Shown here piece after piece: positions 104 to 52,395 of a stretch of 52,505 bases of DNA. The translations under genes and the position numbers were made by a program. How positions within the stretch are numbered: position 1 is the stretch's first letter; each line of letters opens with the position of its first letter. The DNA lies in IMG/VR virus record IMGVR_UViG_3300046050_000049, positions 1-52,505 of that record; one strand, given 5' to 3'. The notes under the pieces are model-generated. The model ran no database searches. It was not told the DNA's origin and saw nothing but the letters and a program-made list of their open reading frames with translations. Source of the DNA: a virus. Its lineage: Duplodnaviria; Caudoviricetes.

Positions 104-1366
104 ATGGCTGACAAAGATTTCAACGAGATGGTCGAACACGTACTGGAGACCATCCGCGAATCCGACCGGCTCGATGACCGCGACATCGAACTGCTCGTGC
201 AGTACAATCGCCGACTGCGCCGTCAGCAGTCGCGCGTCGGCGTGAAACGCCGGCTGAAGAATCTGAAACACCTGCGCCTGCTCGCCGGTCACTCGCAGAA
301 ATACAGTCCCGATGAACTCCCGGACCCGGCGCTCGCAGACGCCCTCAAGGACCGAGAGGCGGTTGGACGCTTCCTCGATTTCATCCACGCGACGTACTCC
401 AACGAGGAGACGAACCGCGACTACCGCGCTGCGCTTCGCTCGTTCGGTGAACACGCGACGGACGGTGACATCTCGGACCCGATGGATGAGATCTCCGCGA
501 CGACCTCGCACGACTATCAGCCGATGCCGGACCCGGCGAAGATGTACCGCTGGGAGGACCACATCCAGCCGATGCTCAACGCGGCTCGATACACGCGTGA
601 GCGAGCGCTGATTGCTGTCGCGTGGGACGCCGGCCTTCGATCCGGAGAGCTCTACAATCTCCGGATCGGTGACATCGCTGACCACAAATACGGTCTGTCG
701 GTGACCGTCGACGGAAAGCGAGGGCAGCACTCGGTGACGCTGATCCCCGGTGTGCCGTACCTCAAACGCTGGCTGGAGAACCACCCAGCACCGGACGATC
801 AAACTGCTCCATTGTGGTCCGACTTGGACACTAACCGCGCTGTCTCGTACAAGATGAAACTGAAGATGCTGAAGAAGCCGGCGCGTGACGCCGATATGGT
901 CCCGCCCTCGTCGGCGACGCCCACCCGGATGCGAAAGTCCTCGGCGAGCTATCTTGCGAGTCAGGGTGTCAATCAGGCGCATCTCGAGGACCACCACGGC
1001 TGGAAGCGCAGCTCCGACGCCGCGTCCCACTACATCACTGTGTTCGCTGACGCCGGCGACCGCGCCATCGCGAAGGCGCACGGCGTCGACGTCGAACCCG
1101 ATGAGAACGACCCGATTGCACCGATTGAGTGCCCCCGTTGCTCGCGGGACACGCCTCGTGAACGCGGGGCCTGCGTCTGGTGCGGGCAGGCGCTCGCTCA
1201 GGAGACGGCTCGCGAAGTCGACCACCAGCGGACCGAGATCATGCAGTCGCTGGCCGAGACTACCAGTGACGATGTCGCGCAGGCGCTCATGGCGGTCGAC
1301 GACAAGCTCGGTGGCGACGCGCTGTTCAGCTACGAGGGGGCCGTCGACACGCCGGCCGGCGACTGA
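104..1366 (+). CDS. int: Tyrosine recombinase/integrase with C-terminal Zn ribbon (SNJ2-like haloarchaeal type)
   Basis: Catalytic motifs GLRSGEL, DGKRG, RMRKSSASYL, HHGW, SHY; C-terminal CPRC...CVWC; next to att. ATG at 104 chosen because the longer ORF (35) crosses att. Confidence 0.92.
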   Translation: MADKDFNEMVEHVLETIRESDRLDDRDIELLVQYNRRLRRQQSRVGVKRRLKNLKHLRLLAGHSQKYSPDELPDPALADALKDREAVGRFLDFIHATYSNEETNRDYRAALRSFGEHATDGDISDPMDEISATTSHDYQPMPDPAKMYRWEDHIQPMLNAARYTRERALIAVAWDAGLRSGELYNLRIGDIADHKYGLSVTVDGKRGQHSVTLIPGVPYLKRWLENHPAPDDQTAPLWSDLDTNRAVSYKMKLKMLKKPARDADMVPPSSATPTRMRKSSASYLASQGVNQAHLEDHHGWKRSSDAASHYITVFADAGDRAIAKAHGVDVEPDENDPIAPIECPRCSRDTPRERGACVWCGQALAQETAREVDHQRTEIMQSLAETTSDDVAQALMAVDDKLGGDALFSYEGAVDTPAGD

Positions 1367-2330: not shown

Positions 2331-2694
2331 CGTTCTCACCCTCGTTGACGGCGAGCGCTTCGTCGACCATCGCGTCGATGAGATCGGTCGTGTCCAGACC
2401 GGTCGTATCCAGCACGGCACGGAAGTGCGCGCCCAGCATCTGGATCTGCGCGACGGCCATCGGGGTGCCAGCCTCAAGGACGGTACTGGAGTAGTAGTCC
2501 GTCTGGCCTTCGGCCATCGCAACGAGAAAGTACCCCATCAGCTCGTCAGGATTCTCGAGCGCGTTGCGAGCGATGTCAACATGGTCCGGAAAGTCCTCGT
2601 TGGCGTCGGTACCGTACGCGACATCGTATCCGTCGTTCCGGAGCGCCGTGATCAGCTCGTGGGTGCGCTTGGTCTCCTCTTGTTCATCAGTCAT
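2323..2694 (-). CDS. Hypothetical acidic protein
   Basis: ATGA overlap; acidic composition. Confidence 0.7.
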   Translation of the reverse strand: MTDEQEETKRTHELITALRNDGYDVAYGTDANEDFPDHVDIARNALENPDELMGYFLVAMAEGQTDYYSSTVLEAGTPMAVAQIQMLGAHFRAVLDTTGLDTTDLIDAMVDEALAVNEGENDD

Positions 2695-3542
2695 TGCGAA
2701 TCACCCCGGTCAGTGTCCGTGTCTACGGACCGGCTGTTCCCGCCGTCCGTAGCTGGAATTAACTTCGTCTGTTCGGCGATGGCACGACCGTAGCGGTCGA
2801 CTTTTTCCCGGTAGTCGGCGAACAGTTCCTTTTTGTGGGCTTTCGAGTCCGCCCGGTAGTTCCACGCCGACGTATCACTTGACGCGAAGCGCCCCCACAG
2901 ACGGCTGTCCTTCCACCCATTGAGGGTTAGGCCGAATAGGTGCCACTGTCGGGGGCCGAGAACATCCTCGCAGGCGTCGAGCACCTCGCCGATCTTCGAC
3001 GGGTCGTCGCGTTTGCAGACCGTCCCGATGGCCATTCGGTCGGTGTCGATACCGTGACGCTGGAAGCGCCGGGCGCACTCTCGGTAGTCGTCAGGGTCCC
3101 AGCCCTGTAAGACCGGGAGAACCTCAAACGGCCAGTTGTGTGACTCGTAGAGGTTGTGGGCTTCGCGGTGTTTTTCGACGGTCTGGTCGATGCGCTCTTG
3201 AGGCGTCGTCTCGTGGAGTTCAGGTTCGCAGGCGTAGTCGGGGAGTGCCACCTCGTCGGCCCCGACCTCGGCGGCCCACTCGAATAAGTCACGAACGGAG
3301 TAGGGATATTCGAGGTCCCAGCCGGCGGTGACTTGGAAACCGCCCGAGTCCACGAGGACGTGGCCGGGAGAGTCGGGGACGTGGAGGTTGAACGTCGGGC
3401 CGCTGTTGTTCCACGCGAGACCGGCAGACAAAAGAATGTTCTCGCCGTTGAACATTCCGTTGTAGGTCCCAGTAGTGTCGATGCAGTAGTGCATCCGGGG
3501 GGCGTCAAATTGGTCAGTACCGCCGATAGACTGCTCACTCAT
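2691..3542 (-). CDS. tRNA-guanine transglycosylase-fold protein (DpdA-like, candidate 7-deazaguanine DNA transglycosylase)
   Basis: TGT-type motifs in order: VLVDSGGFQ, ALPDY, LPVLQG, MAIGTV, WHLFG, SSDTSAW; start taken at MSEQSIGG. Confidence 0.75.
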   Translation of the reverse strand: MSEQSIGGTDQFDAPRMHYCIDTTGTYNGMFNGENILLSAGLAWNNSGPTFNLHVPDSPGHVLVDSGGFQVTAGWDLEYPYSVRDLFEWAAEVGADEVALPDYACEPELHETTPQERIDQTVEKHREAHNLYESHNWPFEVLPVLQGWDPDDYRECARRFQRHGIDTDRMAIGTVCKRDDPSKIGEVLDACEDVLGPRQWHLFGLTLNGWKDSRLWGRFASSDTSAWNYRADSKAHKKELFADYREKVDRYGRAIAEQTKLIPATDGGNSRSVDTDTDRGDSQ

Positions 3543-3807
3543 CGCGATCACCGCCCGACGCATCGCGCTCGTCTCGCTGTCGCTCCGCAAGATGCCGGGC
3601 GCAGAGTCGCATCGAGCCGTCGTCTGGATGATGTGCTGTGTACACGCGCTCACAGTCGCCACACTCGTCGCAGCCGAACTCCTCGGTTGTTGGGACGTGG
3701 AAGTGACCGCCGCAGTCCTGACAGCGGGTCGGCGGCTGTGTCGTGCTGATCTTCTTACAGCCCGAACATATCCAGCAGGACCCTTCGTTGAGGGCCGCAA
3801 TGCTCAT
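3535..3807 (-). CDS. Multi-CxxC Zn-finger protein
   Basis: CSGC, CQDC, CDEC, CARH; operon overlaps. Confidence 0.65.
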   Translation of the reverse strand: MSIAALNEGSCWICSGCKKISTTQPPTRCQDCGGHFHVPTTEEFGCDECGDCERVYTAHHPDDGSMRLCARHLAERQRDERDASGGDRDE

Positions 3808-4004
3808 CGCCGCACCTCAACAAACTCACCACGAACAATCGCGGCTTTCTCACAGGGGTGCGTCGTCCCTGATGCCACTTCGTCGATATGCAACCACAGC
3901 CGTTCGCCGATCATATCCTCCCGAATCTCGCCGGCCGGGAGCCGCCGATTTGCGGCCGCGACAAGTTCGAGTTTCGGATCGTCGAAGGTGGTGTCGTCAC
4001 TCAT
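3804..4004 (-). CDS. Hypothetical protein
   Basis: ATGA overlaps. Confidence 0.6.
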   Translation of the reverse strand: MSDDTTFDDPKLELVAAANRRLPAGEIREDMIGERLWLHIDEVASGTTHPCEKAAIVRGEFVEVRR

Positions 4005-4792
4005 TGGGTATCACCCACATGGTCGGCGAGTTCTGTGCCGTCCTCGCGTCGCACTGTCCGGACCTCCGGTGTGATCGCATCAAGATCGCGGTTCAGAACC
4101 GCGGCGACACGCTGTCGGGCGCGCAGTGGGAGATCGGCGAAGTCCACGGCATCAGCCATCACTCCGCCCTCACACCAGTAGTTGCCCTTATTCGTGTGTT
4201 CGACTGCGAAGCCAGCGATGAGTTCGTCATCGTTGTCGAGTCGGTCGGTGCAATGAACCGTCCACTTCTCGTCGGTCTGGTAGCCCTCGTCGTGAAGCTG
4301 CACGTCGATCTTGATGTTCGTCGCTGAGGTGTCCTTCTTCCACGCCGGCGGGGTCTCGGGGTCGCCGCAGTTCTTCGGGTCGGTCAGGTCCTTGCCACAC
4401 TCGACGCACTCGATTCGGTCAGTGCCTCCTCCAGATTGACCGCCGTCGGCGCGGAGACCGTCGTCGAACCGAGATTCGGCGACATGCGTGACGGTGAACG
4501 GCTCGTCGGCGAGCAGCGCCCGCACGTCCCGTGCCGAGCACACCCGCTCGCCCGTCGCGTCAACGACCGGGTAGCGGACCTCGCCGGTCTCGTCCACGTC
4601 AGCGCGGATCTCCTCGATGCCGTCAACGATGACCTGCAGGTGGTCGGCCTGCCGCAGACACCACAGGACATCGCTCTCGGAGACATCCTCGCGTGGACGG
4701 GAATCGTTGAGATAGCCGCAGACGCGTGCCGCCGGTGCGCCCTCGTCGGCGAGGTCCAGCAGTGTCGCGTCGACGCTGGGGTGCGCCGTCAT
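4001..4792 (-). CDS. Two-module hypothetical protein with ADGG linker; second module starts with CxxC
   Basis: Acidic ORF in the operon chain. Confidence 0.7.
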   Translation of the reverse strand: MTAHPSVDATLLDLADEGAPAARVCGYLNDSRPREDVSESDVLWCLRQADHLQVIVDGIEEIRADVDETGEVRYPVVDATGERVCSARDVRALLADEPFTVTHVAESRFDDGLRADGGQSGGGTDRIECVECGKDLTDPKNCGDPETPPAWKKDTSATNIKIDVQLHDEGYQTDEKWTVHCTDRLDNDDELIAGFAVEHTNKGNYWCEGGVMADAVDFADLPLRARQRVAAVLNRDLDAITPEVRTVRREDGTELADHVGDTQ

Positions 4793-5151
4793 CGCTGGTC
4801 CTCCATGTGGACGACCTCGTCGGTTCGCAGCCCGGCGTCTAGCTCGACGTGGACGTCGACGTACCCCTCGTCGATCAGATCGCGCTCCGAGAGATACTCG
4901 ATTGACTTGTCGAGTGTTTCGGCGGCCTCGTGGAGCTGGGCGACGTGCTCGAACACCTCCTCGTCGAGGAAGGCGACCTCGTCACTGTCGACGAGCATCC
5001 CAAACTCGACGGGATCGTCGTCCTCCCCGCGGGTCCAACGCTCGGGCTCGTCGTCGAACAGCGCCGCGAGCGCTCGCAGGTCGGCGGCGAGCGGGCCGTC
5101 GGTCGGATATCCCTCGGCGTGGCAGTGTGCCAGCGCTGGTGGCTCACTCAT
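4789..5151 (-). CDS. Hypothetical acidic protein
   Basis: Operon overlaps; acidic composition. Confidence 0.7.
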   Translation of the reverse strand: MSEPPALAHCHAEGYPTDGPLAADLRALAALFDDEPERWTRGEDDDPVEFGMLVDSDEVAFLDEEVFEHVAQLHEAAETLDKSIEYLSERDLIDEGYVDVHVELDAGLRTDEVVHMEDQR

Positions 5152-6646
5152 CGTCCATCTCCTCCATGAGACACTCGAAACAGGGGAGTGGCGTCCCGCA
5201 GCCTCGATTCCCGTTCTCGCAGGTCGGGTCTTGGTCGCCGACGCCGGCGTCGCTCCGGACGGCGTCGACGGACTGGTGACGGAGGCGGCCGCGGTCGCGA
5301 CCGCCGTCGGCGACGCGGTCGTAGAACACAGCGTCGCAGTGCTGGATGTCGTCGGTCTTGTCGACTATCTCGCCGGGACCGTAGTCTCGGAGGTCCGGAG
5401 CCCAGCCGATCTCCTGACACCAGTGTGCGATGACCCACTGCGCCGCCTTTTCATCGTCCTCCCAGCTCCCGTCGTACCGACGGGCCTCCACCGCGAGTGC
5501 AACGAGATAGTGCAGCGGGTTCTCGACGTCAAGGTGGTCGCCGTCGACGGCGATTCTGAGGTTCTTCACCGGCGCACCCGTCTCGTCGGTGTTGGTCTCC
5601 TCCTCGTCAGGATAGTACCCCTTTCGTCCGAGAAACGCCACGCACTGGGCACAGACGAAGTCTTCTCGCGCCTCGCTATACCCGAGGTTTGTTTCGTCGG
5701 ATGTCTGTCCGCACGACGCACAGTGGTCGGCTTCGTCTAGAGTCGGCCCGCCGTCCGTCCGCGGCTCGCTCCCGAAGGTGTCGTCGAACTCGCGAGCTAG
5801 GGCGCGGAGCGCACGTCCGGGGGTCCGACCGCCCATCACCGTGTACGCGTCGGCGTTGTCTACCTCTACCTTCCAGACCTGTTTACTCTTGTCACCGTCG
5901 CGAACGTGCGTCCGCTCAAGAGTGATGTCGTAAGATCCCTCGCCGTCGGTCAGCAACGACGGGTCGATGTCTCGGTCCTCGGGGTTGTGGACGCCCTTGA
6001 CCCGGACGACATGCGACTCGTCGGCCATGTTCTTGTGCAACCTGACTGCATGTTCGACGGCATCGGGAGGTCCTTCCGCCGGATGTTCCATCCCGGAGAT
6101 GGTGTCGTCGTAGTCGCAGTCCATGCACTCGAGCCGCCACTCCGTTTCGGGGTTCACTCCCCCATCCGTCGCGAGCATGGGATCCGGGTGCGCCGGGACG
6201 ACCCGCATTCCACCATCGTCGCGACGGTAGATCCGAACGTCGACGCTCGGTGGGATGTCGAGCGTTTGACGGACAAGTCGTGCGGAAACTTTGACCCCAG
6301 CGCCGACATTGTATTTGAACGCTCGCGCTTGTCCAAGGGGATCGTCGGGCTCTTCGTCGACGATACTGAGTCCGGGACCATCGTCGACGACCCAGAGATC
6401 GTCGCCCTTTCGCCAGTCGTAGTTCGTCCAAGCTCCAATCGAGATGTTCAGCGAGTACCCCCCGAGTCTGACGATACCGAGATACCCCTCTCCGGTCTCG
6501 TTGACGTACTTGGAACCGCCGTCCGTCGCGGCGCGCTCGATATCGACATCGTGGAACTCTTCGTGGCCCTCAAGGGCGTCGCCGACGGTCTCGAAGTCGC
6601 CCGTCTCGATGACGCCACACTGCTCGCATCTCGCGACGTAGCTCAC
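5144..6646 (-). CDS. Mosaic multi-module protein (about 6 modules separated by TDGG-like linkers, several Cys/His fingers)
   Basis: ATDGG x2, LTDGEG, RTDGG, ADGG separate unrelated segments. Confidence 0.75.
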   Translation of the reverse strand: MSYVARCEQCGVIETGDFETVGDALEGHEEFHDVDIERAATDGGSKYVNETGEGYLGIVRLGGYSLNISIGAWTNYDWRKGDDLWVVDDGPGLSIVDEEPDDPLGQARAFKYNVGAGVKVSARLVRQTLDIPPSVDVRIYRRDDGGMRVVPAHPDPMLATDGGVNPETEWRLECMDCDYDDTISGMEHPAEGPPDAVEHAVRLHKNMADESHVVRVKGVHNPEDRDIDPSLLTDGEGSYDITLERTHVRDGDKSKQVWKVEVDNADAYTVMGGRTPGRALRALAREFDDTFGSEPRTDGGPTLDEADHCASCGQTSDETNLGYSEAREDFVCAQCVAFLGRKGYYPDEEETNTDETGAPVKNLRIAVDGDHLDVENPLHYLVALAVEARRYDGSWEDDEKAAQWVIAHWCQEIGWAPDLRDYGPGEIVDKTDDIQHCDAVFYDRVADGGRDRGRLRHQSVDAVRSDAGVGDQDPTCENGNRGCGTPLPCFECLMEEMDDE

Positions 6647-7842
6647 TGACCGTCACCTCCGTTATCGCTCGGTTGCGTTCGAGGCTCCGCGCCGGCGAGC
6701 CGATGGGGTTCGTCGTCATCGGCGTCGGCTGCCGACTCTGCATACTTGACGAGATTTCTGATACGCTCAACTCGAGACTTCGAATACCGGAGCGCGTCGA
6801 TGTATCCCTCGAGGTACGCTTGGAATCGGTCGTTGTGGGGCTGATCGAGCATCACACCGTCGAGAATACCCTGCTGGACACGGCCGCCGATGTGCTCTAT
6901 TCTGTCTTCGATTTCTTCTTTCGCCTCGTCGATTTCGGTTTGCTGGTATTCCTGCCACGTTTTCTTCTCGGACTCAGTGTCGCTTGCAGGCTGCCCGCCG
7001 TCTGGGACGGGTTCTTTTTCCGTACCCTCGTCGCCGTCGCCCTCTTGGTCGTCCTCGTCCTCAGCCGCACGAAGGCGCTCGACGTGCTCGGCGATGACCT
7101 CCGCGTGGCACGCCGGTTCGTCTTCGCTGAGGCGCTGGCACCAGCAGCCGAGCGTTTTGCCGGCGAGGTTGCGCACGGCCTGCCGGAACGCGTCATCGTC
7201 GCGAAGCCGCGCCTCGAAATCGCGTCTGAACTGCTGGATGGACGCAGCGCGGCTCTCGCTCTCGCTGAGCGGGTAGGGATTGCCTAGCCAGCCACGCTGG
7301 TTGGTATCCGTCGTGTTGAGTCCTCGGCCACCCGGCCCGCGCCCGACGTACACATCGGTGTCGTTGTGGACACAGTGCCCGACGCGGGTCCGTCCCTCAC
7401 CACCGTCCGAGAGCACCTCGTCCGGATCGGCATTAAGGAGTTTCTGTCCCGGTGCCGATGTGTGGCCTCCGCTGTTCTTATCCGGTGCTCGTTCGGCCGG
7501 CTCGTTGAACTGGGCGTCGCAGTCGTCACACCGCCAGTCGGTTTCTGGGGTCGAAACGATACCGCCCGGGGTGGGAAAAATGTCGGAGGACTTGCACTCG
7601 GGGCACGCTTTGACCGTGCCGCCGTCGGGTGCGAGATCACCAGCATACCGCCGTCGCTGAGACTCGCACTCTGGACATTCGTCGCTGTCGTCCGACCGGT
7701 AGTGCGCGCCGCAGCCGGTACACTCGTAGGTGACAGCCGGCTGCGATGTGTCGTCACGCGCTGGGGTGTACCGTTCGTCGAGAGCGCACTGCCGACACAG
7801 CCTGCTCCGGGTGGTCCGTGAGCCGCACTTCGTGCAGCTCAT
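6643..7842 (-). CDS. Mosaic protein: Zn fingers, a DUF4326-like domain and an acidic helical module
   Basis: DVYVGRG...WLGNPY...LGCWC...CHAEVI is the DUF4326 pattern; PDGG and SDGG linkers. Confidence 0.75.
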   Translation of the reverse strand: MSCTKCGSRTTRSRLCRQCALDERYTPARDDTSQPAVTYECTGCGAHYRSDDSDECPECESQRRRYAGDLAPDGGTVKACPECKSSDIFPTPGGIVSTPETDWRCDDCDAQFNEPAERAPDKNSGGHTSAPGQKLLNADPDEVLSDGGEGRTRVGHCVHNDTDVYVGRGPGGRGLNTTDTNQRGWLGNPYPLSESESRAASIQQFRRDFEARLRDDDAFRQAVRNLAGKTLGCWCQRLSEDEPACHAEVIAEHVERLRAAEDEDDQEGDGDEGTEKEPVPDGGQPASDTESEKKTWQEYQQTEIDEAKEEIEDRIEHIGGRVQQGILDGVMLDQPHNDRFQAYLEGYIDALRYSKSRVERIRNLVKYAESAADADDDEPHRLAGAEPRTQPSDNGGDGQ

Positions 7843-8270
7843 TCTCGTCCCTCCAGTTCGGCCGAGCCGCCGTCCGGGATGGCCTCGTCCGGGTCGGCAG
7901 CGAGGAGCTTCTGCCCCATCGCCGAGGTGGTGCCGCTGCCGCGAAGCGGAGGCCGCTCGACCGGCTCGTTACACCGTGCTCCGCAGTCGCGGCAGTACCA
8001 GTCGTGCGTGGCCTCCTTTTCCACGCCGCCGTGGCGTGGGTGGATATCTGAGCTATTGCACTCGGGGCAGGCTTGGACCGTCTCGGCGTTCAAGTCGGTA
8101 GGCTCTTGCTCGTCGGTGATGTCGGTACTGCTGGCGGGTCCTGTCCCTATCTCAGTCCCCGCTGTTTCTGCGTCGGGAGCCGCGCTGCTCGTCTCAGGGT
8201 CGCTGGTGCGACCCGACTGTACGTCCTCGTGGGGCTGAGTATTATGTGCCCCGTGGTCGTGGTCTTGCAT
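7839..8270 (-). CDS. First gene of the early operon; Zn-ribbon protein
   Basis: CPEC...WYCRDC module paralogous to one in the next gene. Confidence 0.7.
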   Translation of the reverse strand: MQDHDHGAHNTQPHEDVQSGRTSDPETSSAAPDAETAGTEIGTGPASSTDITDEQEPTDLNAETVQACPECNSSDIHPRHGGVEKEATHDWYCRDCGARCNEPVERPPLRGSGTTSAMGQKLLAADPDEAIPDGGSAELEGRE

Positions 8271-10662: not shown

Positions 10663-11760
10663 TCAGTCGTTGGACGTCGATCCCGACACGTTGATCGCCG
10701 GCTCGTCGGCGGTGAGCGGGTCGAACGTGACCCCGGGATCGATTTCGTCGTCAACGACGCCGTAGCGTCGGTCGTGCTCCTTACCCTCAAACTTGATCAG
10801 GTCGTACTCGTGCAGCTTCGCGAGCTTATTTCGTCGCGACCGCCGACAGATGGGCGTCTGTGGAGAGCCACGATACAGCCGCTCGGCGAGATAGTCGTAG
10901 TAAGCGTGAAGCGTCGCACCGTCGAGCGGCCCCCACGCGTGGATGATCCCGTACAGGATCTGATGATGAAGCGGGACGGACTGGATGTTCGAGGCACGAA
11001 TCATGTGCCGAGCTCGCTCATAACAGTCGGCGACATCGGCGTCGCGAATTGAGGCGTGCTCGCGCTCGACAGCCAACTGGGCGGCGGCGTACAGCGACTG
11101 GATGCCGCGTCGAGCGACCCCGGCCGTCTCGTCGGCGATCTCTCGAAGCTGTTCGTTGTCGACGACGCCGTCGCGAAGGCCCTGTATCGCTCGGGCGCTG
11201 AGGATGTCGGCGAGTTCGGTCGTGCTAAATCGATCAAGCTCGATCTGCGTAGCAATCGAGCCGCGAACGCGGTCGGAGCAGGCGGCGAGCCAGCGGTCAG
11301 GATTGTGGACGATGACGACGACGGACAGCAACGGACAGTCGAGCAGCTGGTCGAGTGCCTCGGAGTGGCAGAGGTCGTCCCCCTCGTCGCACACGACGAT
11401 ATACGGGTCGTCGACGGTCTCGCGAAGCAGTCGTGGGAGGCCGTCGGTCGGGGTGTTCGAGGCTGGCTCGGGGCCGCGGGGATAGGCCGCGATGACCTCG
11501 CGGAGGATTGTTCCAGTCCTCTTGCCGAGGGTCCGGATGTGGGTCTGCGGGACGCCGGCGTGATCGGCGACCTTATCAACGACGTGGCGTGCGAGGGCGG
11601 TCTTCCCGACGCCGGAGCTCCCGGAGAGGAGGACATCGTCGGCTCGATCACCGTGGACGGCTGGGGCGAGCGCGTTATGAAGGCGAGTAACGGGCTGATG
11701 CCGGTGGATGAGCTGTCGCGGCGGCCACTCGTCGGTGAAGACCCGTGCCTCCGTTATCAT
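10663..11760 (-). CDS. cdc6: Orc1/Cdc6 family AAA+ replication initiator
   Basis: MITEARVF start, Walker A GSSGVGKT, Walker B VVCDEGD, LADILSARA, GVARRGI, C-terminal wHTH. Confidence 0.9.
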   Translation of the reverse strand: MITEARVFTDEWPPRQLIHRHQPVTRLHNALAPAVHGDRADDVLLSGSSGVGKTALARHVVDKVADHAGVPQTHIRTLGKRTGTILREVIAAYPRGPEPASNTPTDGLPRLLRETVDDPYIVVCDEGDDLCHSEALDQLLDCPLLSVVVIVHNPDRWLAACSDRVRGSIATQIELDRFSTTELADILSARAIQGLRDGVVDNEQLREIADETAGVARRGIQSLYAAAQLAVEREHASIRDADVADCYERARHMIRASNIQSVPLHHQILYGIIHAWGPLDGATLHAYYDYLAERLYRGSPQTPICRRSRRNKLAKLHEYDLIKFEGKEHDRRYGVVDDEIDPGVTFDPLTADEPAINVSGSTSND

Positions 11761-11839: not shown

Positions 11840-12208
11840 CTAACTCGCGAGGGCGTCGTGGAAGTTGATGAAGGCCTCGACTACCGGAGCGTCCTCGGCG
11901 TCTCGTAGCGCGTACATCTGTGCCCCGCTGGTGGTTCGCGTTTCCTCGACCAACCCGAGACTGACCAGCAGGTCGATATTATTGTGAACCGTGCGCCGCC
12001 CCACGTCGGCCATCTCTGCGAGGTCGGACTTGTTGAGATCCATTCCCTGTGCATCGAGCAGGGCGCGGAGCATCCGGCAGGCAGCCGGGTGGCTGGTCAG
12101 CTCGACCCACGGGTGCTCGACGAACGCGGCGTCAGCGTCGTCGAGCGCCCCCTCGCCATCAGTGCCTCCATCAGTACCGCCACCGTGAGAAGTCTGTTGC
12201 TCTCCCAT
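11840..12208 (-). CDS. ArsR/HTH-type transcriptional regulator
   Basis: LNKSDLAEMADVGRRTVHNNIDLLVSLGLVEETR wHTH. Confidence 0.8.
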   Translation of the reverse strand: MGEQQTSHGGGTDGGTDGEGALDDADAAFVEHPWVELTSHPAACRMLRALLDAQGMDLNKSDLAEMADVGRRTVHNNIDLLVSLGLVEETRTTSGAQMYALRDAEDAPVVEAFINFHDALAS

Positions 12209-12319
12209 ATGCAACCAATTGCACGCATAGGGCATAAAAATTGTGCATCTGGTTGCTGCACAGTGTGCAATCTATTGCACAACACTTATGATGGTGGCGT
12301 GTGTGTATTTAATTGCACA
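12208..12319. promoter_or_regulatory. Divergent promoter with 3-4 palindromic operators TGTGCAAT-NN-ATTGCACA
   Basis: Perfect copy 12264-12281; variants 12208-12225 and 12302-12319; weak copy 12242-12259. Confidence 0.7.
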
Positions 12320-13596: not shown

Positions 13597-14787
13597 CTAC
13601 AGCTCCGGCCCGTGATTCGCGAGCCACTCCCCCTCAGTCTTCTCGCCTCGGTAGCGGTCGACATGTGTACCGACCTCGCGCCTATCGCTCAGACCCAACT
13701 TCTCAGCGACCTCGCGATAAAGCAGCCCAGCATCAACGAGCGCGACTGCCTTCGCGCGCATCTCCGGCACGTCGCCCTTCTCTTCGAGCTCGGCAGCCAG
13801 CTCTTCCCACGTTTGACTCTTGTCTTCGCTTGACCACCCACAGTTCGGGCAGGTCACAACGCCGGTTTTCCGCTCGGTGACGGCCACGTCGCAGTAGCAC
13901 TCGCGGCAGTGGACGCCCGTATTGTAAGCGTACTCGTCGGTCACGAAGATCGGCGAGGCGACCGGGTCCGTGGGATCGCCGTCGCCGAACAGCGGCTCGG
14001 CGTCGTCAGGAACGAACGCGTCGATGTCCTCCGAGACGGAGGTGTCGAGTCGAGAGTCGTCGCTGCCCTCAGCGTCGTGACTCGGCTGATCGGTAGGGGA
14101 GCCGGCAGAGCGGCCGCCGTCGGTCGCGACCGTCGGCTCGCTCGACAGGCGCACGTCCCCGATGTATTCTTGCTCGCCGTCCGCCCATGATATCTGGTGT
14201 TTCCGGACAGCGCCTTGGAGCGCGGACTTGCAGATGCCGTACGCCTGCGAGTCGGCCGTGTCCTTAATCCCCGCCTGAGCCATCGCCCGCTCAACCTCGT
14301 GGGCGTACGCCTCCTCGCGGTGGGTCCAGACCTTCTGCTTGTTACACGGGACATTACCGCCGCCCGGACCGCGCTGACGGATATCCTCGTGGAGCACAGT
14401 CTGAGCACCCTCCTGCCACTGCTCAACCAGCGTCTCGGCCAGCGTCGCGGCGCTATCGCGAAGTGCAACAGCGAGCTGTTCGTAGTCGTCGGCCTCCAGT
14501 TCCTGACCGCGCTCGTGGAGTGTTTCGGCGTCGCTCTCGATTGCATCGCGAACGTGGTCAACGCTGAGGTCCGCCGGCTCAACCACAAGTTCACCCACGC
14601 CGTAGACGGTGTAGTCTGTCTCCGAAGGCCCGACCTGCCAGCGCCGCCAGCAGACCCACGCCTCGGTCCCCGCAAGCCGACCGAGGTAGTTGTGACGGCT
14701 GTTGTCGCTATCGTACCAGTGGTGTTTGATATCGTACTCCTGTTCGCGGGGATCGATTTCGTCGGCGTTAACTTTGTTGTCGCTCAT
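13597..14787 (-). CDS. Multi-module protein: unknown N-domain, ATDGG linker, Zn ribbon, C-terminal HTH
   Basis: CREC...CPNC; LLYREVAEKLGLSDRREVGTHV. Confidence 0.7.
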   Translation of the reverse strand: MSDNKVNADEIDPREQEYDIKHHWYDSDNSRHNYLGRLAGTEAWVCWRRWQVGPSETDYTVYGVGELVVEPADLSVDHVRDAIESDAETLHERGQELEADDYEQLAVALRDSAATLAETLVEQWQEGAQTVLHEDIRQRGPGGGNVPCNKQKVWTHREEAYAHEVERAMAQAGIKDTADSQAYGICKSALQGAVRKHQISWADGEQEYIGDVRLSSEPTVATDGGRSAGSPTDQPSHDAEGSDDSRLDTSVSEDIDAFVPDDAEPLFGDGDPTDPVASPIFVTDEYAYNTGVHCRECYCDVAVTERKTGVVTCPNCGWSSEDKSQTWEELAAELEEKGDVPEMRAKAVALVDAGLLYREVAEKLGLSDRREVGTHVDRYRGEKTEGEWLANHGPEL

Positions 14788-14794
14788 ATGATAT

Positions 14795-15235
14795 TCACCA
14801 CGGGCTGTGTGCCGGGTCAATATTTCCAGCCGGCTCGTCGAGAACGCCGATATCGACAATCTCGACGCGGTCGGCTGGAATAGGGTCAGCGTGGACGTAC
14901 GCGTCCGGGACGTTCGGCGGCGACGTTGCGCTCTCGCTGTCGAGGGTCAGCCGGTCCGGATTGACCTCAGCCCGGACAAGAGCGAATCGCTCCCCGTGCT
15001 CCATCTCAGCACGGACATCTTTGAGAGAGGTCCGCGCGTATATCTCCATATTCCGACGCGTCTTACAGACGTGAACGCCCTCGGTCACCGTCTCGACGGT
15101 ACTTGGATCGGTTGGGTCCTGCGCGAGGTGTGTTGCGATGCAGTCGGTCATTTCGAGGCCGTCCTCCGTGATGCTGTCAATATTACTCTCTGCCGTAACG
15201 TGCCACACGGTAATGTGGTCGGTCGTGTCGCTCAT
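14795..15235 (-). CDS. Putative ADP-ribosyltransferase-fold protein (Tpt1/DUF952/DarT-like)
   Basis: VWHVT...NIDSITEDGL...GVHVC...LVRAEV...YVHADPIP pattern. Confidence 0.55.
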   Translation of the reverse strand: MSDTTDHITVWHVTAESNIDSITEDGLEMTDCIATHLAQDPTDPSTVETVTEGVHVCKTRRNMEIYARTSLKDVRAEMEHGERFALVRAEVNPDRLTLDSESATSPPNVPDAYVHADPIPADRVEIVDIGVLDEPAGNIDPAHSPW

Positions 15236-26811: not shown

Positions 26812-28250
26812 AGCGAACTCGCCTCCTGAAGCGACAGCTCGGTCGAGAGCATGGTTGATTCCGCATCGATCGTCGTTGAGCGCCGCGTGACCAGATACGT
26901 GCCGGTAACTGGCGCACCGGACCAGTCGCCGACGCCTGTATCGACGATATCGCCGGGCTGGAGTCGGTGGGCGCGAACGGATTCGGCTTCGCCGTCGATC
27001 GTTCGCGTCGGCGCAGTATTGTGCTGGAGATGCGAGCGTGCAGTGTCGCGCACTGCGGCGAATGTCCCGAGCGTGTCATCACGGATTCGGTGGTCGCGAC
27101 GACGATACTCGCCTGCAGCACCCTCATCGCGAGCTCTCGTGAGCAGCGGGTACGGATACTCAGCCTGATACGTGAGGTTCCCGTTCCCGTCGGTTCCAAC
27201 GAGATGACCTGTGGAGCCGGTTGCCTCGACGATCACCCACGGGTTATCGTTTGGTGCGAGGGTGTGCGAGGGCAGCAGAAACGTCGTCAGGCCGCCATCC
27301 GCGAGAAACTCTGGGCTGAGTCGCTTCGATGCGATATCCGACTCCGTCAACTCGACGGCGACGGGCGCACCGCCGCGATCGGACTGGAGTCGTACGGCGA
27401 GTTTGTCCGGACTCGTATCATCTGGATCAGTCCACACTTGGACGCGGTCCACCTCGGACTTTCGCGTCTGCACTTGTGTCATGATCCGGTCCGACCGTGT
27501 GACCCGCGTTGTTGCCGACTGGGATAGCTGTTCGTCGTCGGTGTCGTGAGCCGTGCCGCCGTCGACGCGGACGAGTGTTGCGAGGTCGTCGTCGTTTCCC
27601 GAGATGTCGATGCTTCCGCGAAGGTCTTCGGGCATGAGCGAGTACTTCACGCTGACATCCTGCAACGGTTCGAAGACAAGTGCGGTCCCCTCCTGAGCGA
27701 TCACCGCGTCGGCGATCGGCGCGAGGTCCTCAACGAGCACGGTCCGGAGATCGCGTCCGTTCACGAACGTATCCGTCTCCCGGGCGACGGTTCCGATCTG
27801 CGACCGGTCAATCTCTGGTGCTTCCTCACGCAGCAGCGAATCGACGATCGCATCTGGTGATCCTGCGATCGGTGCGTCCTCAAAGTCCACATAGGGCCGT
27901 CGCCACGAGAGGACGGCCGAGACGAAGTCCCGCGCGCCGATCTCGATGCTACGGCGGGTCCCGCCGGCGAGGGTGATACGTGGGGGCTTCGCGACTGCCG
28001 TCCAGAACTGGTTGAGCTGGGATTCGCCGGCAAGCTGCAGCCAGAGTTCGAGCCGGTCGCCAGCTGTGATATCGACGCCGTCGTAGCGACCGTGATCGTT
28101 CGGGATCGTAAAGCTACCTTGGTCAATTGCGCCCTGTCCACGTTCGGTGATGGTGACACTGTCGAGATCCCGGCCGGGGATACTCACGTGCGGCTGGTCG
28201 GCATTAGGATGGTAGACGCGGAGTTCCGCGTCGGCGATGGAGAGAGGCAT
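26808..28250 (-). CDS. Tail tip/baseplate hub-like protein
   Basis: Directly after the tape measure gene; beta-rich; LQPGDIV motif. Confidence 0.65.
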   Translation of the reverse strand: MPLSIADAELRVYHPNADQPHVSIPGRDLDSVTITERGQGAIDQGSFTIPNDHGRYDGVDITAGDRLELWLQLAGESQLNQFWTAVAKPPRITLAGGTRRSIEIGARDFVSAVLSWRRPYVDFEDAPIAGSPDAIVDSLLREEAPEIDRSQIGTVARETDTFVNGRDLRTVLVEDLAPIADAVIAQEGTALVFEPLQDVSVKYSLMPEDLRGSIDISGNDDDLATLVRVDGGTAHDTDDEQLSQSATTRVTRSDRIMTQVQTRKSEVDRVQVWTDPDDTSPDKLAVRLQSDRGGAPVAVELTESDIASKRLSPEFLADGGLTTFLLPSHTLAPNDNPWVIVEATGSTGHLVGTDGNGNLTYQAEYPYPLLTRARDEGAAGEYRRRDHRIRDDTLGTFAAVRDTARSHLQHNTAPTRTIDGEAESVRAHRLQPGDIVDTGVGDWSGAPVTGTYLVTRRSTTIDAESTMLSTELSLQEASSL

Positions 28251-28253
28251 GAA

Positions 28254-31058
28254 TTAGATGTCCAGTGCGTCAAGTTCGTCGCGGAGTGCCTTCGCGGCAT
28301 CGCGGCCCTCCTGCCGGCCGGACGCCTCAATTCGCTCGATGATGATCCGAGTCTCCCCCTCACTTGCGTCAACCGCACCGCGGTCGGTCACTTGTGCCGA
28401 CGGGACGACTCGCTCACCTGCATGCAAGATCGCCGCCCCTGCAGACTCGATCAGACCGCCCGTCGCGAGGCCGGTCATACCATGCGGGTCGTCTGGGACA
28501 GGTACGCTATCTGGACCGTCGTACACGGGGCCGGGCGAACCAGATCCGCCACTTGATCCACCCGAGGAGCCGCCACCGCCGGTACCACCACCGCCACCGC
28601 CACCACCACCGCCACCGCCACCACCACCGCCACCGATTGGATCTGGTGGGTCGGGCCAGTCGATATCGAGGTTTCCGTTGTACGCTTTTTTGACGATGGT
28701 CGGCAGCTCCGGCCAGTCAATATCGAAGCTGATCGCCCGGAAAACGGCACCAACAGCGTCGACCATCGCCTCCGCTGCGCTCTGTACCGCCCGCTTCCCG
28801 TCGTTTCGTAAGAACGCCGCTATCGACTGGATGGTCTCAGGAACAATGCTGTTTCCGATTAGTCCCTGATGAAGCCCTTCAAACGCAGCCATGACCACAT
28901 CGATGACAACACCGATGGCAGCCTTGAGGTCGCTCTTTGCGTCACTTATGAGATAGGACGCGATGTTTTTGATAAGTGACTTAACGATACCGCCCGCACC
29001 GATGACAGCCGTTTTCAGGGCGGACCAAGCTGCCTCGCCAACAGCCGTCAACACGAAGAATGCGGTCTTGAGGTCGCCTTTCGCATCAGTTCTGAGGTAG
29101 TTCACTGTCTGTGAAATCAAGGTCTTGATGATGCCCCCCGCGCCGATGATGGCGTCCTTCACCCCGAGGATTATCGTTCGAATGCCCAGTCCAAGCAGTC
29201 TAAACGCGGCCTTCACGTCCTCCGTGCCGATGTTCGTAATGTAGGTGACGATTGCGCTGAACACCGAACGGATCGTGGTTTCGATGGCCGTGAACGCGTC
29301 CGACACGAGGCCGCGAATGAGAGTGAACGCAGAATCGAAGTCGCCACGGACGATTGCGAGTCCTGCGCGGGCGAGCGTAATGACGGTGTCAAGGTAGGCC
29401 TTGACCACCCACGCGATGGCGCTGAACGCCGATTCTACGACGCCCATGATGCGGTCGCCATGCGCTGTCCAGAATGCCTGCAGTCGGTTGAGAGCGCCCG
29501 TCACGTACGGCTCGACGAAGTCGATGGCGGCCCGAACCCGACTGGAGATGATGCGCCACGTTTCCTTGGTTTCGGCCTGCAGTTTCTCACCGTGTTCCGT
29601 CCAGACTCCTTGGACGCCGCTGATGAACGGCGCGAGGAGGTCATTCCGGATGTAGTTGACCGCGTTCCCGACGCGTGTCTGCACCGCATCGAAGGCGGTG
29701 CGTGTCTTCTCCTGTATCCCGCCGATATCACGTTGCCACGCGACAGCAAGCCCAGCGATCGCGGCGATGGCGATGCCGATTGGACCGGTTAACGCCGTGA
29801 GTGCCGTTCCGAGGGCCGACGTGGCGGACCCGATAAGCCCAAACTGCGAGGCAAGTAGTGCCCCCCCACCGACCAACCCGCCAATGGCCGTTGTAACAAG
29901 TCCGATAGTGGCCGGAAGGCCATCGAATTGGTCGTTAAACCGGGTGAAGGCATCCAACGCGGGGAGGATCGCATCTTGGGTAAGGTTCTTTAGCACGGGA
30001 GCGAGTCGCTCGCCGACTGATCTGAATAGATTGTTCACACGGGCGCGGAGCAACTGAAATTGCCCCGACAGCGTGGAGGTTCGGATCTCCATCTCCCGTT
30101 GCAGGCTCGTCCCGTCCTCAAACTGCTCGTTGACTCTCTGTTGGGCCTTCTCTGTTCGGGACATCTGTGCGCCAAGCTTGCTGAAGGCTCGGGTAGCTCG
30201 TGTTCCGAGAGCTGAAGAAAGGTCTCTCGCGGCCTCTCCGCCGCCAACCATTTTCTCGCTTACAAGAGTGAGCAACTCCTCAGGACTCTCATCCCGCAGT
30301 TCTCGAAACTTCTCGGGAGGCATCCCCAGCGCCTGAGAAACGTCTTCGACCTTTTTTGGATTCATAAGTGCTTCCGCAGCACGTCGAAGCCCCCCAGCCG
30401 CTCTTCTACTGCTCGGAGAGACCTCATTCATCGAGGCGCTGAGTGCCAGTACGGCATCCTCCCCCAAGCCAAACTGCTCGGACAGAACGTTTGCAGCACG
30501 GGTAGCGGTATCAGTCACCTCGGAGGAGTTCGTTCTCATCGAGTCAGCGAGCGCGTTCACAGCATTTCCCAACTCCCCAATCTCATTCATCGGCGTCCCG
30601 ACCGCGCCAGCTATTTTTGCGAACCGCTTCCCGGCTTCTTCGGCGGCGAGATCTGTACCGACTGTGATTTTGCTGATGCTCTCGCTGAAGGAGAGAATTG
30701 CATCCTCACTCTCCGCGCCGAATTTCGCTGCTTGCGTCCCGAGTGCCGATAGCTTCTCAGCTGAGAGAGGAATTCGTTCGGCGAGCGTCTCAAACTGCTC
30801 AGAGAGTGTGGCAGCGATGTCGGTGCTACTTACCTTCTCGAGATCGGCGATAGCGTCCTCAAAATTCTGAAATTTGTCAACACTCGTTTTGAGTGCGCCG
30901 GTGGCGAGTGCTCCAAGAGCAATCCCGACGCCCCCGACTGCCTTTTTGAAACCACTTAACTTGCCGATGGAGTCGCTGATGTTCTGGTTGAACGACGATG
31001 TATCTGCCCCGACCGCGACCTGTACGGCGGGATCGCTGGAGAATGGATTTCTTGGCAT
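28254..31058 (-). CDS. Tail tape measure protein
   Basis: 934 aa, Ala/Gly-rich helical, FEDAIADLEKV, LTGPIGIAIAAI, GLATGGLI..G.A.LHAGERVVP. Confidence 0.92.
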   Translation of the reverse strand: MPRNPFSSDPAVQVAVGADTSSFNQNISDSIGKLSGFKKAVGGVGIALGALATGALKTSVDKFQNFEDAIADLEKVSSTDIAATLSEQFETLAERIPLSAEKLSALGTQAAKFGAESEDAILSFSESISKITVGTDLAAEEAGKRFAKIAGAVGTPMNEIGELGNAVNALADSMRTNSSEVTDTATRAANVLSEQFGLGEDAVLALSASMNEVSPSSRRAAGGLRRAAEALMNPKKVEDVSQALGMPPEKFRELRDESPEELLTLVSEKMVGGGEAARDLSSALGTRATRAFSKLGAQMSRTEKAQQRVNEQFEDGTSLQREMEIRTSTLSGQFQLLRARVNNLFRSVGERLAPVLKNLTQDAILPALDAFTRFNDQFDGLPATIGLVTTAIGGLVGGGALLASQFGLIGSATSALGTALTALTGPIGIAIAAIAGLAVAWQRDIGGIQEKTRTAFDAVQTRVGNAVNYIRNDLLAPFISGVQGVWTEHGEKLQAETKETWRIISSRVRAAIDFVEPYVTGALNRLQAFWTAHGDRIMGVVESAFSAIAWVVKAYLDTVITLARAGLAIVRGDFDSAFTLIRGLVSDAFTAIETTIRSVFSAIVTYITNIGTEDVKAAFRLLGLGIRTIILGVKDAIIGAGGIIKTLISQTVNYLRTDAKGDLKTAFFVLTAVGEAAWSALKTAVIGAGGIVKSLIKNIASYLISDAKSDLKAAIGVVIDVVMAAFEGLHQGLIGNSIVPETIQSIAAFLRNDGKRAVQSAAEAMVDAVGAVFRAISFDIDWPELPTIVKKAYNGNLDIDWPDPPDPIGGGGGGGGGGGGGGGGGTGGGGSSGGSSGGSGSPGPVYDGPDSVPVPDDPHGMTGLATGGLIESAGAAILHAGERVVPSAQVTDRGAVDASEGETRIIIERIEASGRQEGRDAAKALRDELDALDI
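28570..28634. repeat. CCA/CCG triplet microsatellite encoding poly-Gly in the tape measure protein
   Basis: Tandem CCACCG-type units. Confidence 0.8.
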
Positions 31059-31090
31059 AATTTTTATTGATCGGGTTTGTTGAGACAGCT

Positions 31091-31333
31091 ATGACCGAGG
31101 CTGAAGGGCCGTGTCAGAAGTGCGATTCACCCATCTCTACGGACGCCGCTCGATGTCCTGCGTGTGGATACGAGCCGGGTGCTGAAATTCGCAAGCAGGC
31201 AAGGTGGCGATGGGGGATTGGTGCGCTCTGCTGTCTCACTATCATCGGCGGGATCATTGGAATCCCGCTGGTTATCTCGGGGTTCTTACACCACCGGAAA
31301 GCGAAGAGCGCTACGCCAGTACATTCAGATTAG
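31091..31333 (+). CDS. Antisense moron: Zn ribbon plus TM helix
   Basis: CQKC...CPACG then CLTIIGGIIGIPLVI; opposite strand inside the tail operon; TTTTTATT upstream. Confidence 0.7.
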   Translation: MTEAEGPCQKCDSPISTDAARCPACGYEPGAEIRKQARWRWGIGALCCLTIIGGIIGIPLVISGFLHHRKAKSATPVHSD

Positions 31334-31353
31334 TTCTCTTCGCCCGCTTGGCG

Positions 31354-51107: not shown

Positions 51108-52177
51108 CTCCTGAGGTCGGTGGCAGCCTCACGCGCCGGCGGGAGTTCCGGGAGTGGGGCAGCCGGTGGCTCCCGACCGGCGAACGGCTCGGGAGACGCC
51201 CGCTCCTTCCACGCCGTGAGCCACTCGCGCTCGCGGCCGTCGACGGCGTCTATCAGCTGGTCGTCGGGCCAGAGGTAGATCGGGAGGTCGAGGTCGGCAC
51301 CGATCTCCTGCACCCAGCGGAGATGGTTGAGCTGGTAGTCGACCCAGCGCTGTTCGCGAGCGTCGATTTCGACGAGCGCCTGATGCAGTTCGTTCGCACC
51401 GGCGTCGGCGGCCGCCTGCTTCGTCAGCTCGAAGTTCGACCCGCGTGGGTTGAGCGGCTCGTGGAAGACGACGGCCGGGTCGAGCGCGACGGTCGCCTCA
51501 AGTAGCTCCCGGAGTGCCGCCCGGTCAAGCGTCGGGTAGGTAGGATTGACGGAGACGAAGACCTGAACGCCAGCGTCGGCGAACTTTTTGAGGCCGCGGA
51601 GGCGGTGGGACGGAGCCGGGGCCGCCGGCTCGATGGCGATTGCCGCCTCATCGTCGAGCGTGGAGAGCGACGTGCCGACCGTGACGTGGTCGCTGGCGTC
51701 CTTGAAGACATTGAGGTCCTGCAGCGCGAGGATCGGGTTTCGGGTCTGAATCCGAGCGTAGTGCTCCTGTTCCGCGAGCAACCTGACGCAACGCCGAGTG
51801 ATGCTGCCGGCGCGGCCGTCCATGTAGCAGTCGGTCCCGTAGGAGATTCCGAAGACGCCGCGCCCACGTTCGGACATCTCGAAGGCGCGCGTGCCGGAGT
51901 CGATTGATTCGAGCGCGGTCTCCAGATGATGCGGGAGATCGTCTCGGTAGAGGACGTAGTCGCCCCACTCCTCCTGAGAATCGTCGACGCCGACGCTCTC
52001 AAGCTTGTCGGTGTGGTATCGGTACGGCGGGGTCGTAGGGACGTAACAGAACTTGCACCCATGCCGACAGCCCGTCGCGACGTTGATGACGTAGTCACAG
52101 AGGCGCTTCTCGGTGAGCGCCGACTCGGAGTATGGCGTTCGCGATGGATCGGACGCAGTCGCAACGTCGTTGGTCAC
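51095..52177 (-). CDS. Radical SAM protein, spore-photoproduct-lyase-like family
   Basis: INVATGCRHGCKFCYV (CxxxCxxC), TDCY, IQTR, IEPAAPAPSHRL. Confidence 0.85.
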   Translation of the reverse strand: MTNDVATASDPSRTPYSESALTEKRLCDYVINVATGCRHGCKFCYVPTTPPYRYHTDKLESVGVDDSQEEWGDYVLYRDDLPHHLETALESIDSGTRAFEMSERGRGVFGISYGTDCYMDGRAGSITRRCVRLLAEQEHYARIQTRNPILALQDLNVFKDASDHVTVGTSLSTLDDEAAIAIEPAAPAPSHRLRGLKKFADAGVQVFVSVNPTYPTLDRAALRELLEATVALDPAVVFHEPLNPRGSNFELTKQAAADAGANELHQALVEIDAREQRWVDYQLNHLRWVQEIGADLDLPIYLWPDDQLIDAVDGREREWLTAWKERASPEPFAGREPPAAPLPELPPAREAATDLRRWSK

Positions 52178-52395
52178 GCCGACCACCCCCAGTCGTCGAG
52201 CGTCGTCTGTCCATCGACATCGGTCGGCGGTTCTCCGCCGTCCGGAACGGGGACGTTCTTTGCAGTCTCCTCACCAGCGGGGGTGGGGTCGGTCGCATAG
52301 ACCGTTTCGCCGGCGTCCTCGTCGGCGACGGGACGCTCGTGGAAGTACTGCCACGAGTGGTCGAGCGGCTCGCCGTCATACGAGCGCCGGCTCAC
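52174..52395 (-). CDS. Small acidic protein, first gene downstream of the tRNA
   Basis: GTGA overlap with the radical SAM gene; ends GQTTLDDW. Confidence 0.6.
   Translation of the reverse strand: MSRRSYDGEPLDHSWQYFHERPVADEDAGETVYATDPTPAGEETAKNVPVPDGGEPPTDVDGQTTLDDWGWSA

Follow-up and report, generated by a model that had tools for sequence, protein, structure and literature searches.

Why does a four-residue peptide, [T/A/P/S]DGG, recur in frame through a run of neighbouring minus-strand genes of one virus, and what might it do there? The question arises from the IMG/VR record IMGVR_UViG_3300046050_000049, a complete virus record of 52505 bases (G+C ~63%) that was analysed as a whole and is called the window below. 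The window is the genome of a haloarchaeal tailed virus: its genes include an integrase (35–1366) and Orc1/Cdc6-like, terminase, portal, Mu-F-like, capsid and tape-measure genes (Pfam, PHROGs), almost every gene lies on the minus strand, and resemblance at the DNA level is limited to short stretches of phiH, phiCh1 and Humcor1. A preliminary description of the letters had listed the peptide at minus-strand sites between 2739 and 7877 and at three outlying places, and had proposed that it joins unrelated modules of early proteins, either as a processing site or as a micro-homology handle. All of the sites between 2739 and 7877 were present and in frame, the variant TDGEG lying one base off the ~5937–5951 given for it, and the outlying sites were confirmed as well (Table 1). 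We report that this junction is real, is general beyond the window and has apparently gone undescribed, and we weigh what it may be for.

A recurrent motif and its consensus

The six minus-strand genes at 2691–8270 (1794 amino acids (aa); among them genes A, B, C and E and a DpdA/TGT-like gene, Table 1) contained 11 copies of DGG, where composition predicts 1.58, and 10 of [TAPS]DGG, where it predicts 0.41; neither count was matched in any of 20000 within-protein residue shuffles (0/20000). The other 51 called open reading frames (ORFs) of the window (10686 aa) held 10 DGG (6.2 expected) and 3 [TAPS]DGG (1.7 expected). As a stand-in for the host, we used 400 kb of the Halorientalis brevis chromosome (314 ORFs, 105503 aa), where DGG (67 observed, 63.7 expected), [TAPS]DGG (23 against 17.2) and TDGG (7 against 4.1) were counted, and where TDGG was no commoner than other orderings of its four residues. 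The density of [TAPS]DGG was 5.6 per 1000 aa in the six genes, whereas the cellular background was 0.22, so the enrichment over host-type and structural proteins expected of a genuine motif is present: the motif is ~25-fold denser in the six genes, and the other proteins stand at chance. The shuffles and the chance-level cellular chromosome rule out chance or a D/G-rich composition as its origin, and a general haloarchaeal linker is ruled out by the chance-level occurrence in 105503 aa of that chromosome.

Relatives of the 500-aa product of gene C were gathered by a word-indexed search together with a phmmer scan of 1.84 billion representatives (E<=0.001), the phmmer part being the best 150 of 172 matches, which gave a set of 156 proteins with 39438 aa. 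DGG occurred 337 times in this set against 40.6 expected, and TDGG was its top tetrapeptide, with 244 copies or 91 times expectation. The residue before D was T in 244 copies, A in 31, P in 21, S in 9 and D in 9, and the core was strict, with D in 244 and E in 1 at T-x-GG, G in 244 at TD-x-G, and G in 244 against S in 7 at TDG-x; the proteins that keep D, G and G in about 300 copies share only 30–60% identity. After similar contexts had been collapsed to 169 upstream and 199 downstream, with D fixed by the search pattern, L/V/I/P stood two positions before T (−2, 1.15 bits) and V/A/R/L one position before it (−1, 1.24 bits), and no position downstream of GG rose above 0.38 bits in the 199 non-redundant contexts. 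As read from these sequences, the junction consensus is the six-residue [L/V/I]-[V/A/L/R]-[T>A,P,S]-D-G-G. Motif number tracked protein length across the 156 relatives (r=0.85), with a median spacing of 69 aa (interquartile range 53–99.5).

An independent family, that of the DUF4326-bearing gene B, behaves likewise: [TAPS]DGG is carried by 14 of 21 relatives of gene B, which typically read LVTDGG-x(2-9)-TRVGHC and have the motif again after DUF4326. A fixed two-domain DUF4326 group (P0170–P0178, several of them on Mb-size contigs) has no junction motifs, only internal G/ADGG.

Module boundaries and gene boundaries

Gene C was matched by its relatives only piecewise, at residues 1–45, 45–163, 158–237, 228–303, 294–351, 355–448 and 440–495, and these stretches are the segments between the motifs of the window. 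Pfam stretches in 15 motif-bearing proteins lay wholly between motifs in 17 of 18 cases, in agreement with the earlier placement of the motif at domain boundaries; the modules so delimited include PadR, MarR, HTH_27, RHH, HhH, TFIIB repeat, zinc ribbons and an Rv2179c-type exonuclease, and those that can be recognised by Pfam are mostly DNA-binding or regulatory. Homology breakpoints also fell on the motif, as the preliminary description would have it: 46% of internal BLASTP breakpoints (n=6160) lay no more than 6 aa from GG, where a uniform spread would give 12%, and the most frequent offset was 0, an effect whose size is approximate, since the counts are not independent and a shared motif draws alignment ends to itself.

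A structure model of gene C was built with AlphaFold2 (AF2) for 240 residues from a 38-sequence alignment in which module 3 was misaligned and folded poorly. The predicted local distance difference test score (pLDDT) was 94–98 at residues 51–150, <50 at residues 40–43 and about 51 in the block that follows the TDGG at residues 160–163; a single-sequence model was uninformative (mean pLDDT 36.8). The junction is thereby predicted to lie in flexible sequence at module boundaries. A Foldseek search of the PDB with the 240-residue model returned no match at E<=0.001, and the nearest PDB rows for the 'SKY' module (~115 aa) were weak matches to plant B3 DNA-binding pseudobarrels.

The same modules are also found alone. 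Fifty of the 156 relatives are free of the motif, with a median length of 125.5 aa, and most of these appear to be single modules, since 43 of the 50 are <=170 aa. Stand-alone SKY modules (~125 aa, present in many relatives) start M(S)SKY at the very point where TDGG-SKY is read in fused copies, and end in DPxx followed by a short G/D-rich tail. DUF4326 begins 5–12 residues after the initial Met when it is N-terminal; of 9 fused relatives, 7 have it 2–9 residues after GG and the other two have a zinc ribbon in between. Many bacteriophages, like phiCh1 and phiH, carry the exonuclease and DUF4326 modules as ordinary genes of their own, and phiCh1, phiH and Humcor1 have such modules as separate small ORFs with few motifs. 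The relative P0006 places the N-terminus of gene A ahead of gene C modules, which is evidence of module recombination. These observations show that, in the proteins of viruses and integrated elements of haloarchaea, the junction stands in place of a stop/start boundary between modules that fold independently, and that modules have been swapped, fused and split at it.

Within the window itself, genes A and B share a duplicated unit made up of a zinc-ribbon module, its xDGG and the EGR after it (local alignment score 223), the gene A module with its xDGG being paralogous to gene B residues 75–151. The gene A copy is ended by a stop 8 codons past PDGG.

Arrays of this kind were found in an IMG/VR contig, in hypersaline metagenome contigs, in a Halobacteriales metagenome-assembled genome and in Halorientalis and Salarchaeum genomes, often beside Orc1. 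Successive module-alignment scans returned 1 locus and then 0 in viral contigs, 0 and then 3 in genome contigs, and 3 in metagenome contigs; a whole-protein scan of viral contigs with gene C found no relative, and tblastn against phages and plasmids gave single-module matches only. The cultured icosahedral sphaerolipovirus HCIV-1 (KT809302) carries a canonical GYLV-TDGG before DUF4326 in ORF41, and its ORF39 has two ADGG five residues apart (ORF39 and ORF41 region, 3455–4378 and 4832–6076). Because the canonical LVTDGG occurs in HCIV-1 ORF41, the junction is not confined to tailed viruses.

The Orc1/Cdc6-like gene of the window (10663–11760, minus strand) encodes the sole non-array window protein common to three of the six array loci compared, with copies at L005 4415–5458, L006 1266–2312 and L010 878–1909, so TDGG arrays tend to adjoin the replication gene of the element. 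The term 'early', by which the proteins had been introduced, is not supported by the nearest annotated relative, since in the phiH record (MK002701) the late lytic transcript T(LL) is annotated as starting at position 7287, a short way ahead of the DUF4326 homologue.

Processing and its competitors

What could select for such a junction? We consider it possible, though a little short of probable, that the array ORFs are polyproteins cut at the junction. The long ORFs 5144–6646 and 6643–7842 and their relatives would then release single modules after one translation start, by a cut either after G-G or after D. A cut after D ([LVI]-x-T-D/G, the slash marking the bond) would resemble a caspase-type tetrapeptide, and a cut after G-G would be like those at ubiquitin-like, adenain or PLpro sites. 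The protease could be a host enzyme or an unrecognised viral one; if of the host, it might be an enzyme specific for Gly-Gly or the one behind the caspase-like activity of haloarchaea. TDGG would then serve as a portable, protein-level gene boundary, permitting free in-frame shuffling of modules. More tentatively, haloarchaeal tailed viruses, together with some icosahedral viruses and integrated elements, may make their small regulatory and DNA-handling proteins in polyprotein form, to be cut by a host protease at [LVI]-x-T-D-G-G.

We favour processing because a near-invariant motif with one-sided upstream specificity, placed at every boundary of unrelated units, has the look of a polyprotein protease site; the asymmetry in information (1.15 and 1.24 bits upstream, <=0.38 downstream) is the pattern expected where a protease recognises the non-primed side of its site. 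Likewise, modules that come in any order and number, and that pass freely between fused and split forms, are most easily tolerated if they are finally separated. Leaderless mRNAs are frequent in haloarchaea, which would give a single start for many products a rationale. A recurrent consensus site at the boundaries of functional units, as in known polyproteins, was found here, and so were the marks of a caspase-type site: hydrophobic P4, invariant Asp at P1 (D 244 against E 1) and a small P1'. Very high hydrolysis of LEVD-, VEID- and IETD-aminomethylcoumarin (AMC) substrates by H. volcanii extracts, in growing cells, is described in one report (PMC3615174).

The preliminary description had suggested processing of the SAMP/ubiquitin kind by a host JAMM protease. 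The enzyme side of that suggestion held, with Prok-JAB (JAMM) genes in both array-bearing haloarchaeal genomes checked, two copies in each, and none in the window; its substrate side did not, as the upstream units are zinc ribbons, DUF4326, PadR/RHH and the beta-rich module that has no PDB match, rather than beta-grasp folds, and we regard this version of processing as weak. In whole genomes of 4.1 and 2.7 Mb, the DNA pattern ACNGAYGGNGG was counted 184 and 119 times, respectively, and its reversed control 57 and 30 times. JAB genes near pattern matches of this type were set aside, these being chance DNA matches unrelated to the arrays.

Several observations weigh against cleavage. No protease family was recognised among the window proteins by Pfam or PHROGs, distant families being possible; the lone protease-named row is a 'head maturation protease' PHROG match on the Mu-F-like head morphogenesis protein (38199–39068). 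No protease was common to the array loci (six compared, with only Orc1 shared, in three), Peptidase_C14 (PF00656) and Peptidase_C48 were each found in 0 of 2 array-bearing genomes, Asparaginase_2 was in only one of the two, and the two Prok-JAB copies inspected were not adjacent to arrays. The strictly required second Gly is unexplained by caspase-type specificity. Pro follows GG in 13 of 337 copies, and Pro at P1' is disfavoured by many proteases. In 15 of 106 motif-bearing proteins the motif is followed by only 0–9 residues, so that cleavage would free pointless peptides, and in P0101 it is preceded by a 5-aa leader, again a pointless product. The boundary evidence has soft spots too: the one Pfam exception is a weak, sub-threshold zinc-ribbon stretch in P0009, where a motif lies between the two CxxC pairs that the stretch joins, and the breakpoint statistic carries the dependence stated with it.

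The main rival is that the peptide is an uncleaved, conserved linker, TDGG acting as a turn, cap or partner-binding element while the modules stay together as beads on one string; we judge this rather unlikely. Tail and leader remnants would be harmless, no protease would be needed (none was found by Pfam or PHROGs in the window, or in the two genomes), and the motif does sit in low-confidence flexible stretches between folded modules of the AF2 model. Many of the modules are DNA-binding (PadR, MarR, RHH, zinc ribbons), and tethering them could give multivalent binding. A spacer, however, rarely demands D rather than E and G rather than A or S at three positions over 169 non-redundant contexts, and with the downstream module starting 0–9 residues after GG almost no spacer is left. 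A structural role shared by unrelated modules that occur in any order and number, and also alone, is hard to see; moreover, the motif is absent from the fixed two-domain cellular DUF4326 proteins and stands at chance level in cellular proteins.

A second alternative, which we consider improbable, turns on whether the DNA or the peptide is conserved. It takes the junction as an evolutionary by-product, a relic of former gene junctions in which a G-rich Shine-Dalgarno sequence within the final codons of the upstream gene came to be read as Gly-Gly, the DNA afterwards serving as microhomology for module exchange. The material for such a history exists: 8–11 nt of near-identical DNA (ACS GAC GGS GG) could serve in-frame exchange, 10 of the 14 in-frame window copies spell GACGGCGG, breakpoints lie on the motif, and close relatives combine the same modules differently (P0006). 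Modules of phiCh1 and phiH are separate ORFs that overlap by 8 or 11 nt, many ending GG..D[V/A/E]-stop, and stand-alone modules keep what could be decayed remnants, such as MADGSKY and DPFVDGGDC-stop.

The codons speak otherwise. The commonest coding, GAC GGC GGN, is simply that of the preferred codons. GGC, with a background usage of 0.49, encodes the first Gly in 11 of 15 copies (p=0.05) and the second Gly in 6 of 15, and in the related locus L004 GGG, GGC and GGT are mixed. On the minus strand of the region, 11 of 12 GAYGGNGG matches fall in the coding frame (P about 5e-5), and once the 10 in-frame copies are set aside GACGGCGG is found at 4 minus-strand and 7 plus-strand sites, with no off-frame excess. 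Background codon usage within the motif, together with this concentration of matches in the coding frame, shows that the peptide is under selection, not a DNA word. The synonymous variation noted earlier, and the peptide-level selection read from it, are thus upheld; of the micro-homology handle, module shuffling at the motif stands, and DNA microhomology as the reason for its conservation does not. The by-product account faces further objections: T can be replaced by A, P or S, the first Gly, mostly GGC, gives GGCGG and not a GGAGG-type ribosome-binding sequence, and a functionless relic would decay, yet D, G and G are kept in about 300 copies.

Two related DNA-level candidates were rejected. 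A Shine-Dalgarno or internal-start role does not fit, as most copies are GAC GGC GGN rather than GGAGG and no in-frame start follows, except GTG at 6158; a site-specific recombination core or shufflon-type repeat does not fit either, with no nucleotide conservation beyond the peptide and no frame-independent or other-strand excess. The single off-frame GACGGCGG of the region (7647–7655, minus strand) is read R-R-R and lies 20 nt upstream of the PDGG at 7618–7629. The overlapping ORFs of phiCh1 (L001) and phiH (L002) that end GG..D[V/A/E] would fit an upstream reading frame that runs through the ribosome-binding site and ATG of the following gene.

Least probable is a linear signal without cleavage (modification of Thr or Asp, docking of a host factor, or ribosome pausing that helps the upstream module fold, Asp/Gly/Pro-rich tripeptides being known to slow elongation in other systems), which would suit a strict short consensus repeated within a protein in disordered context, but to which nothing lends a specific enzyme or partner, and under which docking or modification would not predict exact placement at module boundaries or equivalence to a stop/start.

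Window features and comparison with known systems

The features of the window that bear on the junction are collected in Table 1. Gene coordinates come from an ORF listing and a crude ORF picker based on third-position G+C, which misses some genes.

Table 1 Junction sites, modules and motif-bearing genes of the window.
Feature	Position	Strand	Remarks
DpdA/TGT-like gene	2691..3563	-	PF23859, E 3e-9; phrog_1279; TDGG at 2739-2750, 15 residues before stop
Gene E	4001..4792	-	263 aa: N-terminal module, ADGG (4439-4450), CxxC-containing C-terminal part
Gene C	5144..6646	-	500 aa, ~seven modules joined by junction motifs
Gene C modules	residues 1-44, 45-163, 164-237, 238-300, 301-~352, ~353-449, 450-500	-	Matched stretches of relatives cluster there
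ADGG junction, gene C	5300..5311	-	Precedes Cys-rich C-terminal module
TDETG degenerate junction, gene C	5576..5590	-	Relative P0006 has KVTDGG directly before the same downstream module
TDGG junction, gene C	5747..5758	-	In frame
TDGEG junction variant, gene C	5936..5950	-	One inserted residue; relatives read IDPSLLTDGG here
TDGG junction, gene C residues 160-163	6158..6169	-	In frame
'SKY' beta-rich module, gene C residues 45-159	6170..6514	-	pLDDT 94-98
TDGG junction, gene C residues 41-44	6515..6526	-	pLDDT <50 at residues 40-43
Gene B	6643..7842	-	399 aa: zinc ribbons, PDGG, zinc-ribbon module, SDGG, DUF4326, PDGG, helical C-terminal module
PDGG junction, gene B residues 280-283	6994..7005	-	In frame
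DUF4326 domain, gene B residues 153-252	7087..7386	-	PF14216, E 8e-19; entirely between two junctions
SDGG junction, gene B residues 145-148	7399..7410	-	3 residues ahead of conserved TRVGHC opening DUF4326
PDGG junction, gene B	7618..7629	-	In frame
Gene A	7839..8270	-	143 aa: acidic N-terminus, zinc-ribbon module, PDGG, 8-aa tail overlapping gene B start
PDGG 'split' junction, gene A	7866..7877	-	8 residues, stop, then ATG of gene B
Winged-helix protein	11840..12235	-	TDGG 12164-12175, then directly TDGEG; N-terminal to HTH
420-aa protein	13597..14859	-	TDGG 14113-14124 between N-terminal part and zinc-ribbon + HTH C-terminal part
73-aa ORF	52174..52395	-	Contains PDGG 52234-52245

The zinc ribbon of gene A gave weak Lar/TFIIB zinc-ribbon matches at residues 64–101. 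A DDGG at 6209–6220 (minus strand), absent from the earlier list, sits inside a module. The likely start of the DpdA/TGT-like gene is the ATG at 3561–3563, the longest ORF extending to 3800; the same virus carries a radical-SAM gene (51095–52186, minus strand), and together the two genes suggest that it may encode a 7-deazaguanine-type DNA modification set. G+C dips to 0.56–0.61 at 28001–32000, the region of the tape-measure gene, against 0.62–0.67 elsewhere in the window.

Full-text literature searches, in which coverage of subscription journals and supplementary files was limited, found no description of the junction, and full-text searches likewise found no report of polyproteins in tailed dsDNA viruses of archaea. 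If the junction is cleaved, archaeal DNA viruses would be shown to use polyprotein expression, and this would be the first such strategy described for archaeal dsDNA viruses; their escape from needing a translation start for each small gene would be explained, a defined substrate would be at hand for finding the responsible haloarchaeal protease, and natural substrates would be supplied for caspase-like activity of the H. volcanii type. Even if uncleaved, the junction offers a simple and accurate marker for splitting hundreds of unannotated 'hypothetical' halovirus proteins into real units; splitting there improves homology searches and structure prediction, and it documents unusually clean module shuffling.

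Viral polyproteins offer a parallel to the processing that we favour: picornaviruses have 3C sites, African swine fever virus pp220 and pp62 have Gly-Gly-X sites, and adenovirus has (M/I/L)XGG-X sites. The window shares with these one short consensus at every unit boundary, upstream specificity, and units that are separate genes in relatives; it differs in that Pfam and PHROGs found no protease gene in it, and in belonging to a tailed dsDNA virus of an archaeon, known here from sequence. Polyubiquitin, ubiquitin fusions and SAMP precursors are processed after a C-terminal Gly-Gly. Head-to-tail units ending in GG, sometimes with a short tail (PDGG plus 8 aa at 7866–7877, TDGG plus 15 aa at 2739–2750), are common to both, whereas the upstream units here have unrelated folds in place of one beta-grasp and T-D is as strict as GG.

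The TGEKP linker joins tandem C2H2 zinc fingers, which are homologous repeats, and is not known to be cut. Like the junction, it is a strongly conserved short peptide that separates small nucleic-acid-binding modules, many of which bind zinc; in place of homologous repeats in a fixed architecture, however, the window has unrelated modules that vary in order and number, are shuffled, and are interchangeable with stand-alone genes. Caspase-type sites resemble [L/V/I]-x-T-D-Gly in their hydrophobic P4, Asp P1 and small P1'; unlike them, the junction requires a second Gly that such specificity leaves unexplained, and Peptidase_C14 occurs in 0 of 2 array-bearing genomes. The H. volcanii activity that cleaves LEVD, VEID and IETD is not tied to a gene in the accessible part of its report (PMC3615174).

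Closest in gene content are the small overlapping ORFs of the myohaloviruses phiH and phiCh1 (Myohalovirus), which share with the window DUF4326, CxxC proteins and a tightly packed same-strand block. Their modules, in contrast, are separate ORFs, and xDGG is rare, with 4 occurrences in the 26 phiCh1 and 3 in the 22 phiH products examined; the two-module phiCh1 protein PhiCh1_350 reads DLIIADGGQEP.

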